In this document: in pieces, positions 19,897 to 58,968 of the stretch
Layout: every line of letters starts with the position of its first letter
Position numbering within the stretch: position 1 is the first letter of the stretch
NCBI GenBank assembly: GCA_964016885.1
Contig: OZ024753.1
Coordinates: forward strand, 33,294,001-33,358,000
Reading direction: 5' to 3'
Length of the DNA: 64,000 nt
DNA from: Eledone cirrhosa
Taxonomy: Eukaryota
Translations under genes and position numbers: made by a program
The notes under the pieces: model-generated
Databases searched by the model: none
Told to the model about the DNA's origin: nothing
The model's input: the letters and a program-made list of their open reading frames with translations, nothing else

Positions 19897-20082
19897 TAAT
19901 ATAAAATCAAAAGATGGTTAAAAGAGTTCCATGTATTTTAAAATTATTATGAAATACATGGAACTCTTTTAGCCATTTTTTGATTTTATATTACTTATAC
20001 TCCAGTCCTATAAACTGGTGAGTGCTACTTATCTGATATTTGCATTGCTTTATTGTGTTACAATAAAACTCACCTCCTACAT
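19897..20082 (+). mobile_element. Miniature hairpin + tail relic of the main PLE family
   Basis: Diverged match to the region downstream of the HHR; arms 19897-19940/19949-19993; tail ends cacctcctacat|TA as at 929. Confidence 0.85.
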
Positions 20083-20731
20083 TATATATATATATATATA
20101 TATATATATATATATATATATATAAAATGTACATATGTATATATATATATATATATATGCATATCTACATATGTATATATATATATATATATATATATAT
20201 ATATGTACATATGTATATATATATATATACATATGTATATATATATGTACATATGTATATATATATATATGTACATATGTATATATATATATATGTACAT
20301 ATGTATATATATATATGTACATATATATATATATATATACATATATACATATGTATATATATATATACATATGTACATATGTATATATATATATATATGT
20401 ACATATGTATATATATATATACATATGTATATATATATATACATATGTACATATGTATATATATATATATATATATATACATATGTACATATGTATATAT
20501 ATATATATATGTACATATATATATATATATATATATATGTACATATATATATATATACATATGTATATATATATATATGTACATATGTATATATATATAT
20601 ACATATGTATATATATATACATATGTATATATATATATACATATGTATATATATATATACATATGTATATATATATATACATATGTATATATATATATAT
20701 ATATACTAGAGAAGAAATATATATATATATA
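20083..20731. repeat. Compound (TA)n array with TACATATGTA units
   Basis: Direct reading; same unit at 22149-22798. Confidence 0.95.
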
Positions 20732-22148
20732 CTAGAGAAGAAATTCCAAACATGGAAGCACGGCCTAGAATCAAAAGGCCTTAAAATTAACCTGGCTAAG
20801 ACTAAAGTTCTAGTTTGTAGGAAAGAAAATAAGGCGGCGGTCCCTTCTGGAAAATGGCCATGCTCAGTGTGTAGGAAAGGCGTAGTTAGAAACTCCATTT
20901 TATGTCCTAAATGCAAAGTATGGGTGCATAAAAGATGTAGTGGGATCACAGGTAAGCTAACTAAGAACATAGATTTTACATGTGGCCGGTGCTCTGGTGC
21001 AATAAGTAGCAGCAAGTGCCCACAAAATACCAGCTCCTTCAACTGCGCAGAGGGTTCTATAGAAATAGTGGACAGCTTCCATTACCTGGGTGACAAAATC
21101 AGCAGTGGGGGAGGGTGCTCTGAAAGTACAGTAGCTAGAGTCAGAACTGGATGGAAAAAGTTCAGAGAGCTTATACCACTATTAGCCGCTAGAGGGTTCT
21201 CCCTAAAAATGAAAGGCAGGTTATACGATGTCTGCATACGAACAGCAATGCTGCATGGCAGTGAGACCTGGGCATTGTGTGCAGAGGATATACGCAGACT
21301 AGAGAGGAACGAAGCTTGCATGCTCCGCTGGATGTGTAATAGTAATATACGTGAACGGCAAAGCATAAACGAACTAAGGAAAAAATTAGAAATAAGAGGG
21401 ATCAGATGTTGTTTACTCGAGAGAAGGTTACGTTGGTACGGTCACGTGATGCGCATGAAAGACGACAGCTGTATAACAAAGTGCAGGGCAATAAAGATAG
21501 ACGGTAGCCACGGTGTAGGCAGACCCAGAAAAACATGGGACGAGCTGATAAATTCCGACCTCACACGCTTACACCTCTCCAAGACAATGTCACTGGACCG
21601 AGACCTTTGGCGGTACTCAGTAATAGAGAAGACCCGCCTTACCTAAATACAAAGTAAAAACCTACTAGAGTCAGTAGGCATCTCTATCAAAACACACCCC
21701 CGTCCCCCACCTCCACCCCATCCACACCGCCCCTTTCAATGTAAAGTTATGTTGGTCCCACAACATCCAGGCCGAAACAAATGAGATCGTGTAGGTGTCA
21801 CGACAAAAAAACACACAGTCCACGCTGTAAATGTGGCCGTGTAGGCAACACGGTAAAAACCTCCCAGCCCCACACTGTAAATGTGGTTGGTGTTAGGAAG
21901 GGCATCCAGCTGTAGAAAACCCGCCAGACAGTCCACGCTGTAATGTGGCCGTGTAGGCAACACGGTAAAAACCTCCCAGCCCCACACTGTAAATGTGGTT
22001 GGTGTTAGGGAGGGCATCCAGCTGTAGAAAACCCGCCAGATAGTCCTATGCGAGCAAGATAAATCACTCTTGCCTCAAGTGGGAAAACCCTCGTCCAAAC
22101 CCATGCAAGCGTCGAACACGGACGTTAAACGTTGATGATGATGATGAT
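20732..22148 (+). mobile_element. RTE-clade LINE, 5'-truncated, (GAT)n tail, ~112-bp tandem duplication in 3' UTR
   Basis: LEKKFQTWK...HGSETW...LRWYGHV...GRPRKTW; matches 46293-47605. Confidence 0.92.
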
Positions 22149-22798
22149 ACATATGTATATATATATATATATATATATATATATATATATATATATATAT
22201 ATATATATATATATACATACATACATATGTAAATATATATATATATATACATATGTATGTATATATATATGTAAACATATGTATGTATATATATATGTAC
22301 ATATGTATATATATATATATATACATATGTATATATATATATACATATGTACATATGTATATATATATACATATGTACATATGTATATATATATATACAT
22401 ATGTACATATGTATATATATATACATATGTACATATGTATATATATATATATATATATGTACATATGTATATATGTATATATATACATATATATATGTAC
22501 ATATGTATATATGTATATATATACATATATATATACATATGTACACATGTATATATATATATATATATACATATGTATATATATATATATACATATGTAT
22601 ATATATATACACATATGTATATATATATATACATATGTATATATATATATATATACATATGTATATATATATACATATGTGTATATATATATACATATGT
22701 GTATATATATATATATATATATGTACATATGTATATATATATATATATATGTACATATGTATATATATATATATATATATATATGTACATATGTATAT
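22149..22798. repeat. Compound (TA)n array with TACATATGTA units
   Basis: Direct reading. Confidence 0.95.
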
Positions 22799-23743
22799 AT
22801 CATCATCATCATCATCAACGTTTAACGTCCGTGTTCCACGGTTGCATGGGTTTGGACGGGGGTATTCCCACTTGAGGCAAGAGTGATTGTCTTGCTCGCA
22901 TAGGACTGTCTGGCAGGTTTTCTACAGTTGGATGCCCTTCCTAACACCAACCACATTTACAGTGTGGGTCTGGGAGGTTTTTACCGTGTTGCCTACACGG
23001 CCACATTACAGCGTGGACTGTGTGTTTTTTTGTCGTGACACCTACACGATCTCATTTGTTTCGGCCTGGATGGTGTGGCACCAACATAACTTTACATAGA
23101 AGGGGGCGGTGTGGATGGGGTTGGGGTGGTGGGACTGGAGTGTATTTTGTTAGAGATGCCTACTGACTGTAGTAGGTTTTACTTTGTATTTAGGTAAGGC
23201 GGGTCTTCTCTATTACTGAGTACCGCCAAAGGTCTCGGTCCAGTGACATTGTCTTGGTGAGGTGTAAGTGTGTGAGGTCGGAGTTTATCAGCTCGTCCCA
23301 GGTTTTTCTGGGTCTGCCTATTCCGTGGCTACCGTCTATCTTTATTGCCCTGCACTTTGTTATACAGCTATCGTCCTTCATGCGCATCACGTGACCATAC
23401 CAACATAGCCTTCTCTCTAGTAAACAACATCTGATCCCTCTTATTTCTAATTTTTTCCTTAGTTCGTTTATGCTTTGTCATTCACGTATATTACTATTAC
23501 ACATCCAGCGGAGCATGCAAGCTTCGTTGCTCTCTAGTCTGCGTATATCCTCTGCACATAATGCCCAGGTCTCACTGCCATGCAACATTGCTGTTCGTAT
23601 GCAGGCATCGTACAGCCTGCCTTTCATTTTTAGGGAGAACCCTTTAGCGGCTAATAGTGGTATAAGCTCTCTGAACTTTTTCAACCCAGTTCTGACTCTA
23701 GCTACTGTACTTTCAGAGCACCCTCCCCCACTGCTGATTTTGT
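22799..23743 (-). mobile_element. RTE-clade LINE, 5'-truncated
   Basis: Reverse-complement match to the 3' end of the full copy; (ATC)n at 22799. Confidence 0.92.
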
Positions 23744-57754: not shown

Positions 57755-58304
57755 ACATATATATGTGTGTATATACAGTTTCCATATTTCCCTCTCAGTT
57801 TTCATAAAAGTAAAATTATATTCTTATTTAAGTTGTGCATTCTTGAAATATGACAAAAGAGAAATGCTAATCATCAAATATTTTGGCAATTGTCTCAGCT
57901 ATATTACTTGACACATGTCAGGTCAAATATTCTTTTAAAGTGTAATTAATAATTAACTCCTCTAAAACATTACGCATATTAAGCTGAAACAGTCTCCCCA
58001 ATGAAAAAGAAAAAATAACTTCCAATAAACAAATATTTAAAGTGAAATATAAGTTCAAACCTGATGTATCACAAGAAAAAAGAAACGTTTATCTTGTCAG
58101 TTTGTATTAGAAATATGGAGTTTGAATTCATGGCTGAGTGGTTAAAGGGTTTCCTTCACAATCATGTGTTTTCTGGTTTGGTGCCAATGCATGGCACTTT
58201 GGCTGGGTGATTTCTGCTATAGCTTTCAGTTGAATTCGGTAGATGGAAATTGTTTGGAAGTTCATAGTGTATGTATGTATGTATATATATATATATTATT
58301 ATTA

Positions 58305-58505
58305 TTGGCAGTATCGGTAGAGGGTCGGATGCCATGGTTTGCAGCAAAGACTTACGGCCGTTTATGGTCTGAGTTCAAATCCCGCTGAGGTTAACTTTGC
58401 CTTTCATCCTTACGGGGTCGATAAAATAAAGTACCAGTAATGCACTGGGTAATTGCTAGCCTTGTGCCAAAAGTAGAAACAATTATTATTATCATTATTA
58501 TTATT
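58305..58505 (+). mobile_element. tRNA-derived SINE (26943 family)
   Basis: Same head, core and (ATT)n tail; older copy at ~63210-63390. Confidence 0.8.
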
Positions 58506-58660
58506 AACACTCTGCTTGTTAAGGATACCGACTATGGGGAAATACCAAATGTATAATATGACATCAGTAGTTGGACTCTGATTAACATTGAGTGCTTATA
58601 CTGGTGAACCAATAGTAACTAAATGTTAAACACTAATACACTCTATATATATATATATAT

Positions 58661-58968
58661 TAGAAAGTGAGGCTGTTTTTACAAAATGAAAAAGAAACGA
58701 GATGTCCTACAAGAGTGAAAGTATAAGGAAAAAATATGAAATCGAAAAAGCAACTGGAGTCTTTTTTTTTTAAATATATATTTATTTGGTTCCTTTACCG
58801 GTTTCACAGTTCTTGTGCTTTTCATCAGATGCGAGAAAAACAACAAACCCTCCATCTCAATTCTACTTTTGAAAGCACAAGAACCGCGAAACCAGTAAAG
58901 GAACCAAATAAATATATATTTTTAAAAAAGACTCCAGTTGCAATTTCGATTTCATCTTTTTTCCTTAT
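58661..58968 (-). mobile_element. Tail + hairpin PLE relic, same family as 33540-33903, opposite orientation
   Basis: Same two end points; unequal arms joined at ttttc/atcagatg. Confidence 0.8.

Follow-up and report, generated by a model that had tools for sequence, protein, structure and literature searches.

Hairpins and a PLE in TA tracts

The 64-kb window (the whole stretch of Eledone cirrhosa DNA that was analysed, on contig OZ024753.1) contains an insertion of a Penelope-like retrotransposon (PLE) at 930-10900, six hairpins designated a to f, a relic and several single-arm copies (Table 1); an RTE-type ORF also occurs in it. All six hairpins sit inside TA tracts, hairpin c with a short CA run between the end of its tail and the tract. 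Arms were measured by local alignment of one arm against the reverse complement of the other. When the 56 islands of 40-700 nt bounded by (TA)5+ tracts in the window were scanned for fold-back potential, scores of 49-163 were obtained for seven, namely the six hairpins and 358-526, with the next-ranked real island at 37 and the best shuffle at 32 (10 shuffles per island, five low-complexity islands excepted). The six palindromes with extra one-sided DNA, first described from the sequence-only reading, are thus real, both by local alignment and by scores far above those of the shuffles.

Hairpin a differs from the others: its extra segment includes a (TA)6 tract, so that both arms terminate in TA and the extra DNA beyond them shrinks to about 31 nt; no relative, hammerhead (HHR), stem-loop or shared tail was found for it. 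The description of arms carrying a 45-90 nt tail therefore holds for b-f and fails for a. The same is true of the remark that the hairpins resemble MITEs without symmetric ends, as b-f have a conserved tail outside the inverted repeat and a has TA at both arm ends. Symmetric MITE-like hairpins are also present in the window (25559-25986 and 29292-29411). As whole insertions, the short tailed hairpins measure 150-365 nt. The insertions lie within (TA)n, where a TA target-site duplication would be invisible, and a general repeat search of the window was dominated by microsatellites.

Table 1. Coordinates of the hairpins, PLE units, stem-loop modules and related copies in the window.
Feature	Position	Strand	Details
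Hairpin a	670..906	.	arms 670-750/781-861, 75/81 identical; 45 nt extra
PLE, outer left arm (full-length Hydra-clade unit)	930..4845	-	ORF 2360-4825; ends with ~87-nt tail (long end) at TA tract
Module 1 in PLE tail	983..1011	-	4-7 nt after short end; second copy 4896-4924
Predicted type I HHR of PLE	1054..1124	-	predicted cleavage after 1062; further cores 5029 (-), 10803 (+)
Module 2 of PLE	4813..4834	-	6-8 nt after long end; spacing to module 1, 90 nt; also at 7067-7088 (+)
PLE, tandem unit	4846..7055	-	5′-truncated, tail included; continuous with outer unit, no seam
PLE, inverted full-length arm	7056..10900	+	ORF 7076-9541
Relic	15141..15420	.	left-pointing HHR arm (15141-~15306); right-pointing tail-like segment with weak module (15324-15360)
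Hairpin b	19897..20082	+	48-nt arms, 44/48 identical; 89 nt extra (tail)
Module in hairpin b	19999-20027	+	stem-loop model
Hairpin c	30051..30203	+	35-nt arms, 32/35 identical; 75 nt extra (tail)
Tailed single-arm relatives of c	34903-35038, 60406-60530, 17340-17475	+, -, -	
Single tailed arm	30665..30834	-	related to relic and Hydra PLE; module 30724-30747
Tailed single-arm relative of e	30893-30988	-	71% over 96 nt
Hairpin d	33540..33903	+	151-nt arms, 146/151 identical; 61 nt extra (tail)
Hairpin e	36276..36470	+	54-nt arms, 52/54 identical; 81 nt extra (~80-nt tail)
Module in hairpin e	36396-36423	+	stem-loop model
Single short-end arm of Hydra PLE	36485..36650	+	complete predicted HHR; tail-less; no partner arm
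Hairpin f	58661..58968	-	99/97-nt arms, 89 identities; 62 nt extra at left

The three units at 930-10900 differ by private changes only. The 5′ end of the inverted arm lies 5 nt inside the tail end, and its 3′ end is the tail-less short end, in a TA tract. The single ORF (an 821-aa stop-to-stop frame) comprises RT plus GIY-YIG at the C-terminus, without N-terminal EN; neither PLE-type ORF in the window was matched in Pfam, and in an alignment with 12 homologs the RDD and GIY-YIG-type columns are invariant. With respect to the motif set of the Hydra clade, taken from the definition of Craig et al. 2021 (PMC8557442), the element has the DKT, the CxCx5C linker and the CxxC/CxH motifs around E and N, and lacks CCHH, and it also has the canonical HHR (by our descriptor) and the (TA)n insertion of that clade. 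It departs from the published clade in its N-terminal RW motif, which is RWT instead of the RWK found in most homologs, and in its unit length of 3.9 kb, as opposed to <3 kb. By motifs and anatomy it is a Hydra-clade PLE; by eye, its ORF resembles Hydra-1_Obim, yet it represents another family.

Tails and fixed ends

In the hairpins both arms point outward, with their 5′ ends meeting at the apex, and each family has one fixed short end and one fixed long end, the tail between the two being element sequence. The tails of b-f are element DNA, as each recurs in an independent copy; the suggestion that tails are unrelated flanking DNA, differing between copies, is countered by this family conservation in five of the six hairpins, and 670-906 is the only one without two fixed ends and a conserved one-sided tail.

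Hairpin b matches the PLE 3′ end at 84% and has both ends as in the PLE at 930-10900, with 75 identities over 87/89 nt in the tail alignment; on this comparison it is a miniature of the full-length element. The common end points claimed for d and f were confirmed on both sides, with agreement at 54 of 61 tail positions; f is an older copy in the family of d, with a more truncated tailed arm, the two having diverged by about 12-14%. The tail of c is partly overwritten by a TTAC repeat, and tail alignments within its family give z of 6.0-10.7. Between families no general homology was found beyond the module described below, most tail alignments having z below 3. Of the proposed link between the hairpin families and a full-length PLE 3′ end, only that of b could be made: for one of about five families a coding parent is present in the window, whereas within these 64 kb none was found for c, d/f or e.

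A bulged stem-loop near both ends

The families in the window and the Hydra-like PLEs on co-assembled eukaryote-like contigs have in common a bulged stem-loop, here called the module, with the design RCTC, inner stem, 2-nt bulge, GAGY-RC, and with compensatory changes. When 37 sites were picked by the 3′ motif TYGAGYRC alone, the 5′ strand and inner stem were found at 19 of them (two of which are duplicates of one element), as compared to a mean of 0.29 and a maximum of 3 in 1000 draws of random upstream sequence; the other 18 have no stem. Two pairs covary (GC13/AU6 and UA10/CG9), with zero double changes in slid controls, and G-U occurs at inner pair 2 in 4/21; the alignment was itself picked for pairing, which makes its 100% pairing circular, and three of its five pairs are invariant. 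Minimum free energy folding recovered the outer stem in five of eight segments, those of b, d and f being the exceptions. A bare motif count (26 versus a mean of 10.5) was set aside as post hoc and inclusive of unrelated repeats.

In 17/17 comparisons, five of them on long ends from two families, the ends of elements begin to diverge 4-8 nt ahead of the stem, although these comparisons were hand-picked, are non-independent (about seven families) and in three cases use an incomplete stem, namely in c, where the 3′ strand is lost, and in d/f, where the model has no match at E<=10. This distance fits 6-7 nt once TA microhomology is allowed. The downstream copy in L002, which was left out of the 17, disagrees, in that it stops about 24 nt short of where the short end was predicted; it adjoins another inverted PLE fragment. 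Paired modules are spaced by 90 nt in the window PLE, 62 nt in L012 and 65 nt in L002, the last pair lying outside the training set of the stem-loop model; where both copies are visible, the spacing matches the tail length, and the second module follows the long end. Mini-copies hold module 1 and lack module 2. By eye, this module is also found at the end of the Hydra-2_Amil consensus as published, and an exact search of the Craig supplement with four module 9-mers gave four matches, one of them in a Hydra 3′ end, with line breaks possibly masking others. In the literature searched we found no bulged stem-loop at PLE ends, although Supplementary Fig. S2 of PMC11167929 may show relevant stem-loops. 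The module may be the signal that sets where the PLE enzyme starts copying.

Hammerheads and apices

Ten HHR cores were detected in the window versus 0-4 in 30 resamples, by a descriptor of our own that was extended to the U3-A8 core once hairpin d had been seen. Two Rfam searches yielded sub-threshold matches only, mostly to miRNA families on generic hairpins and TA repeats, with no hammerhead family among the matches listed (150 of 398, and 124 in the second search). By the descriptor, the only complete HHRs among the hairpins are those in the two arms of d, both of the U3-A8 variant, with cores at 33733 (+) and 33649 (-); c and e retain the 3′ half only (by eye), and in f the HHRs are degenerate or truncated. 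Hairpin b starts at the predicted cleavage site, with the apex within about 3 nt. The view that most hairpins contain HHR parts is borne out in this sense, with the exception of a, which has none.

The idea that all apices coincide with an HHR cleavage site was rejected, as only b and one arm in L006 fit; the latter starts at +1 relative to the L003/L011 variant and at +5 relative to the neighbouring L006 copy. By eye, c, d, e and f keep about 8-72 nt upstream of the predicted cleavage site, so that most templates would have been uncleaved or re-ligated. Hairpins d and f are joined at one common 9-nt palindrome, and the two arms within one element carry common lineage-specific variants.

Relic, single arms and other contigs

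The relic at 15141-15420 has, as claimed, an HHR arm on the left and a tail-like arm on the right: the left part is a full HHR arm, 84% to 35073-35232, and the right part gives a weak stem-loop match (13.6 bits, E 0.92). No inverted homology was found between its arms (best match 8 nt), which do not overlap. Single-arm copies with either end are in the window at least as frequent as the two-arm shape; two-sided products are therefore not obligatory. Arm lengths form a continuum from 26 nt to 6 kb.

The hairpin-plus-tail design recurs in Hydra-like PLE loci on the co-assembled contigs (L004, L006 and L011): L004 has 758-nt arms, 100% identical, plus a 62-nt tail, and L006:9258-9360 is a relic-like join with non-overlapping arms. 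In L003 the arm at ~770 stops 18 nt inside the tail, comparable to the 5 nt of the window arm at 7056.

Origin of the hairpins

We consider it probable, at roughly 0.7, that the hairpins are dead-end, severely 5′-truncated insertions of PLEs, whose reverse transcription would have been primed from both ends of a cut (TA)n tract, with the stem-loops positioning the starts. PLE origin and two ends are backed by the full-length parent, which has the same anatomy and is matched by b at both of its ends. The earlier attribution to two-site priming on PLEs agrees with this parent of b, with the conserved tails and with the other contigs, and does not extend to a, which has no PLE mark; as a mechanism, two start sites match the results of Frangieh et al. 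2024 (PMC11167929). The PLE protein, probably as a dimer, would bind two stem-loops on its RNA, each copy setting one RT start about 6-7 nt upstream; after cleavage of both (TA)n strands by EN, extension would proceed inward from each 3′ end. Both cDNAs would stop early, to be joined via microhomology or a short palindrome. If one arm had zero or near-zero length, or was later deleted, a single-arm copy or a relic like that at 15141 would result. Since they have module 1 and not module 2, mini-copies would be unable to template a second two-ended reaction.

A tentative extension, which we hold to be rather doubtful, is that RT dimers are positioned by two tandem copies of the stem-loop acting as a ruler, the start of each protomer lying 6-7 nt upstream of its module, so that the tail equals their spacing, and that some templates are HHR-processed monomers, linear or circular. 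Linear cleaved RNA would give a minimal hairpin with its apex at the cleavage site (b, and one arm of L006:9258-9310), and circular or re-ligated RNA would give an arm halting after one round just inside the tail (7056 in the window; L003 ~770), while the other arm runs on into a partial tandem. If true, tail, pLTR tandem and inverted arm would be explained by a single mechanism.

The template could also be of another kind, and this reading, though unlikely, is compatible with the main integration mechanism: the parentless families, especially d/f, would be retrozyme-like derivatives of PLEs, short and non-autonomous, whose RNA has a defined 5′ end of its own, as opposed to truncated copies of coding elements. 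In d and f, three of the four arms have a common start some 45 nt upstream of the HHR core, despite the divergence of the two copies, and no coding parent is at hand in the window; according to a preprint (bioRxiv 10.64898/2026.07.22.740005), animal non-LTR retrozymes are likewise non-coding, have type I HHR and derive from PLE pLTRs. They form tandem direct repeats, however, whereas the window hairpins are single inverted pairs; no tandem direct repeats with a type I HHR in each, of the parentless families or otherwise, were present among the window self-matches listed or the HHR matches, and the common d/f apex is a natural palindrome that could merely favour joining.

Less probable still is self-priming, in which one cDNA from the long end turns at a short palindrome and copies itself, with EN then cutting the second arm back at the short end, where it would recognise module 1 as a structure in the DNA. 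Palindromes at inverted junctions led to the proposal of fold-back in rotifer Penelopes (PMC3846280), and Craig et al. attribute the tail to EN-mediated resolution (PMC8557442); the 9-nt palindrome common to d and f and the variants common to both arms are in line with it. The three units of the large PLE do not separate it from two starts, because they have only private changes. It is opposed by the long end, which lies 5-8 nt before a module that is missing from the inserted DNA, so that at least the long end must be set on the template. Fold-back, moreover, cannot make non-overlapping arms (the relic and L006:9258-9360), tail-less single arms occur (36485-36650), and in vitro both strands were extended from two RNA start sites (PMC11167929). 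Finally, MITEs of TA-targeting DNA transposons beside unrelated flanking DNA, to which the TA context, the fold-back shape and the symmetric hairpins of the window might point, are most improbable, being refuted for b-f by tails kept outside the inverted repeat between independent copies (5/6), and opposed by hammerhead parts in the arms, by b matching an RT-GIY-YIG element's 3′ end and by single arms of the same families, although they may account for 670-906, with TA tracts at both arm ends.

Comparison with known PLEs

An inverted 5′-truncated arm with a one-sided tail has already been published for PLEs (PMC8557442, Fig. 2 legend; PMC4209133). Because this architecture is known and sizes are continuous, and with single arms at least as common in the window, the proposal of a class of non-coding PLE hairpins was overstated. 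Canonical EN+ PLE insertions, as presented in the available portions of Craig et al. 2021 (PMC8557442) and Arkhipova et al. 2013 (PMC3846280), share with those of the window the head-to-head inverted arms, a partial tandem, a tail on one side only, palindromes where the inverted arms join and a microsatellite target; their tails are 30-40 bp, as opposed to 61-89 nt here in insertions of 150-365 nt, and those portions describe no structural signal at either end. The Cercyon PLEs of Schistosoma (Cervera and De la Pena 2014, PMC4209133) have, like hairpin d, the U3-A8 core and a pair of HHRs on opposite strands, minimal ones in Schistosoma and separated by about 100-700 bp; in the text available such pairs are mentioned in passing, without tails or end rules.

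In vitro, a Poseidon-clade PLE, Poseidon_Ac, cuts both strands and extends them from two start sites that lie inside its RNA and delimit the tail, as shown by Frangieh et al. 2024 (PMC11167929). Further points in common are the AT-rich target and the HHR, which lies upstream of the start sites and stays largely uncleaved in the template. Initiation there, however, takes place in one AC-rich stem-loop inside the ORF, whereas the window PLE has two copies of a covarying stem-loop upstream of the ORF, with each end 4-8 nt before one of them; inverted products are not treated in that paper. The choice of two internal start sites and the making of tails and inverted arms are open questions according to both PMC11167929 and PMC8557442.

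In Drosophila, siRNAs map to inverted Penelope regions (PMC3681739, in the part available), so that a role of such inverted repeats as a dsRNA source, which had been suggested for the hairpins, is possible by analogy and has a precedent. The new element is the covarying stem-loop near both PLE ends; the hairpin shape itself is already known.

Among transposons, PLEs are the closest relatives of telomerase RT. Taken by themselves, the hairpins are unremarkable remains of PLEs. The module provides a sequence mark by which Hydra-clade PLE fragments, readily confused with MITEs, can be located and their limits drawn, and, being a small RNA element that covaries and keeps a fixed distance from each end, it would open the question of PLE start sites to direct mutagenesis.

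Tailed hairpins and their parent element

AT-rich eukaryotic repeat DNA, rich also in TA microsatellites, makes up the window, which contains one large Penelope-like element (PLE) and RTE-like LINE copies encoding RT, AP endonuclease and PHD domains; as far as can be judged by eye, its ORFs of at least 100 aa appear transposon-derived or microsatellite read-through. Octopus bimaculoides is listed with a Hydra family targeting (TA)n.

All six short hairpins picked out by the sequence-only reading were found, with arms of 35-151 nt that are 90-97% identical and a one-sided excess of 45-89 nt. 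Fold-back scores reached 49-163 in seven of 56 TA-bounded islands, versus a shuffle maximum of 32. Hairpins d and f have both ends in common, as proposed, and their tails agree at 54 of 61 bases; tailed single-arm relatives of families c and e are present elsewhere in the window, and the tails, recurring in independent copies, are therefore element sequence rather than unrelated flanking DNA in five of the six. Hairpin a folds as described, but its extra DNA includes a (TA)6 tract. The relic does join a left-pointing hammerhead (HHR) arm to a right-pointing tail-like piece, but is not itself a hairpin. A type I hammerhead descriptor located 10 HHR cores in the window, compared with 0-4 in 30 resamples; among them are those in both arms of hairpin d, where the core is of the U3-A8 type that has been reported from Schistosoma PLEs.

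The full-length Hydra-clade element, whose protein bears most of the clade marks given in section 11 of PMC8557442, is a giant version of the hairpin-plus-tail design: its left arm comprises a full unit and a 2.2-kb truncated tandem unit with the tail at the end, while the inverted right arm stops about 87 nt earlier. Hairpin b matches the 3′ end of this element at 84% identity, and the two share both end points. The expectation of a full-length parent for each family was thus borne out for b; within the 64-kb window no coding parent of c, d/f or e was found. The unit of the window PLE is unusually long because of two internal tandem duplications in its 3′ region.

Repeat features of the window
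Feature	Position	Remarks
Hairpin a	670-906	
Hairpin b	19897-20082	
Hairpin c	30051-30203	
Hairpin d	33540-33903	
Hairpin e	36276-36470	
Hairpin f	58661-58968	
Relic	15141-15420	
Window PLE	930-10900	
PLE tandem duplications	1221-1642, 1886-2304	~200 nt; 80% and 94% identical
Seventh TA-island hairpin	358-437/446-526	within 216-526, possibly a further tailed hairpin with interrupted right arm; left arm runs on into segment with weak module match (295-324, minus), ending at TA tract
Minisatellite	36012-36205	units hold outer 15 nt of hairpin e left arm between TA runs
Second RT-like ORF fragment	31979-33477	348 aa; internal 66-nt duplication; HHR at 33240 (+); duplicated 153-nt segment
TA-bounded fragment	1-197	module 64-127
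TA-bounded fragment	58500-58643	module 58575-58597
TA-bounded fragment	31006-31154	HHR core 31048
Near full-length RTE-like LINE	43968-47579	AP endonuclease, RT, PHD finger; one frame break near 46600
Truncated RTE-like LINEs	~20.7, 22.8, 38.0, 41.8, 54.7, 56.0 kb	several inside very long TA/CA tracts
Short dispersed repeat, putatively SINE-like	51162-51474 (inverted pair)	also ~23772, 26940, 35577, 51491, 58310, 63214
Symmetric hairpin	25559-25986	TTAA at both ends, arms starting CCC; presumably piggyBac-like MITE
Symmetric TA-flanked hairpin	29292-29411	degraded; we take it as a possible Tc1/mariner-type MITE remnant

The second RT-like ORF fragment, with no Pfam match and no visible likeness to hairpin d, probably represents another PLE clade, and the three TA-bounded fragments are read as further PLE 3′ relics of unassigned families.

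Hydra-like loci on other contigs

Scanning bacterial and archaeal genome contigs with the PLE alignment yielded 12 loci (L001-L012). Although filed under bacterial genomes, these contigs contain PLEs of eukaryote type together with HHRs and microsatellites, and are probably host-animal DNA co-assembled into MAGs, i.e. host contamination. With their HHRs and TA tracts, they repeat the same anatomy over a range of sizes: L004 has identical inverted segments of 758 nt and a 62-nt tail, in L006 an arm of 26 nt faces a tailed arm of 1.9 kb, at L006:9258-9360 a short arm is joined to a partial tail much as in the relic, and L011 holds a small tailed hairpin truncated where the contig stops. It follows that the small hairpins are the lower extreme of a size continuum, and the proposal of a new class was overstated, the architecture being already in print. 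L012:1-2535 corresponds to a single whole PLE unit in permuted order whose termini overlap by 141 nt, indicating a collapsed tandem array.

A candidate stem-loop signal near both element ends

Tails of otherwise unalignable families share a predicted bulged RNA stem-loop, the module, consisting of RCTC, an inner stem-loop, a 2-nt bulge (mostly UU) and GAGY-RC. Its descriptor matched 11 window sites, where shuffles averaged 1.2 with a maximum of 4, and 15 sites in the loci, where they averaged 2.7 with a maximum of 8 (50 shuffles each). As a guard against circularity, sites were picked by the 3′ motif alone; a matching 5′ strand and inner stem were present at 19 of 37 (6/12 in the window, 13/25 in the loci), two window copies of one element included; 1000 draws of random upstream sequence averaged 0.29 such sites and never exceeded 3. 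In a 19-sequence alignment chosen for pairing, both partners change in two of five stem pairs and three are invariant, and minimum-energy folding recovered the stem in 5/8 segments. The model search gave no match in hairpins d/f, where only the 5′ half is present, at the right distance; hairpin c has lost the 3′ half to a TTAC expansion. By eye, the published Hydra-2_Amil consensus has the module at its end, and Hydra-1_Obim a degenerate one ahead of the ORF. L006:10025-10140 is, also by eye, nearly identical to the published Hydra-2_Amil 3′ end.

When an ended copy is set against a continuing one, in 17 hand-picked pairs (12 short ends, five long ends), divergence starts 4-8 nt before the stem (5 in f); against this rule, the L002 downstream copy stops about 24 nt early. 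A second module follows the long end of the window PLE, and likewise that of the L003/L006 family. The two modules of the window PLE lie 90 nt apart, its tail being ~87-89 nt; the spacing is 62 nt in L012 (HHR-side to ORF-side) and 65 nt in L002, and the tails of L004 and L006 measure 61-62 nt.

Origin of the hairpins

On sequence grounds, we regard it as established that the arms point outward, that each of the two ends is fixed, that the tails are conserved and that the modules sit at a fixed distance; a PLE origin of hairpins b-f is very probable. According to PMC11167929, a Poseidon PLE has both target strands cut and extended, and RT starts at two internal sites bounding the tail. The earlier view of the hairpins as minimal two-site products is supported for five of six, given the conserved tails, fixed ends and b's parent, but not for hairpin a, for which HHR, module and relative were sought in the window and none found.

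Because module 2 is absent from the inserted DNA, the position of the long end has to be fixed on the template; this speaks against the hairpins arising purely by fold-back and DNA trimming, and the non-overlapping arms of the relic point the same way. We favor, with a probability of about 0.7, the module acting as a ruler: each module would dock one RT, each end of the cut in (TA)n would prime one cDNA, and the truncated cDNAs would be joined via microhomology.

The full model with HHR-processed templates is doubtful. Most short arms extend upstream beyond the HHR cleavage site, which agrees with the published in vitro work, where the main substrate is uncleaved RNA. The apex of hairpin b lies within ~3 nt of the cleavage site, and b and one L006 arm may derive from cleaved RNA, two cases that are suggestive only. 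Likewise no more than suggestive are two unit-length arms that end within the upstream tail, one by 5 nt and one by 18 nt; a circular template or a template jump would produce such ends.

The literature compared (PMC11167929, PMC8557442, PMC3846280, PMC4209133, bioRxiv 10.64898/2026.07.22.740005, PMC8969392, PMC3681739) already describes inverted arms with a tail, pairs of HHRs lying 100-700 bp from each other on opposite strands, and siRNA arising from inverted Penelope copies, a precedent for the proposal that the hairpins would seed dsRNA if transcribed. A text search, with figures and most subscription papers outside its reach, found no description of a repeated stem-loop marking both ends, although its absence from print is not certain. 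This end-marking stem-loop is the main value of the analysis, as it turns the choice of start site by PLEs into a testable question.
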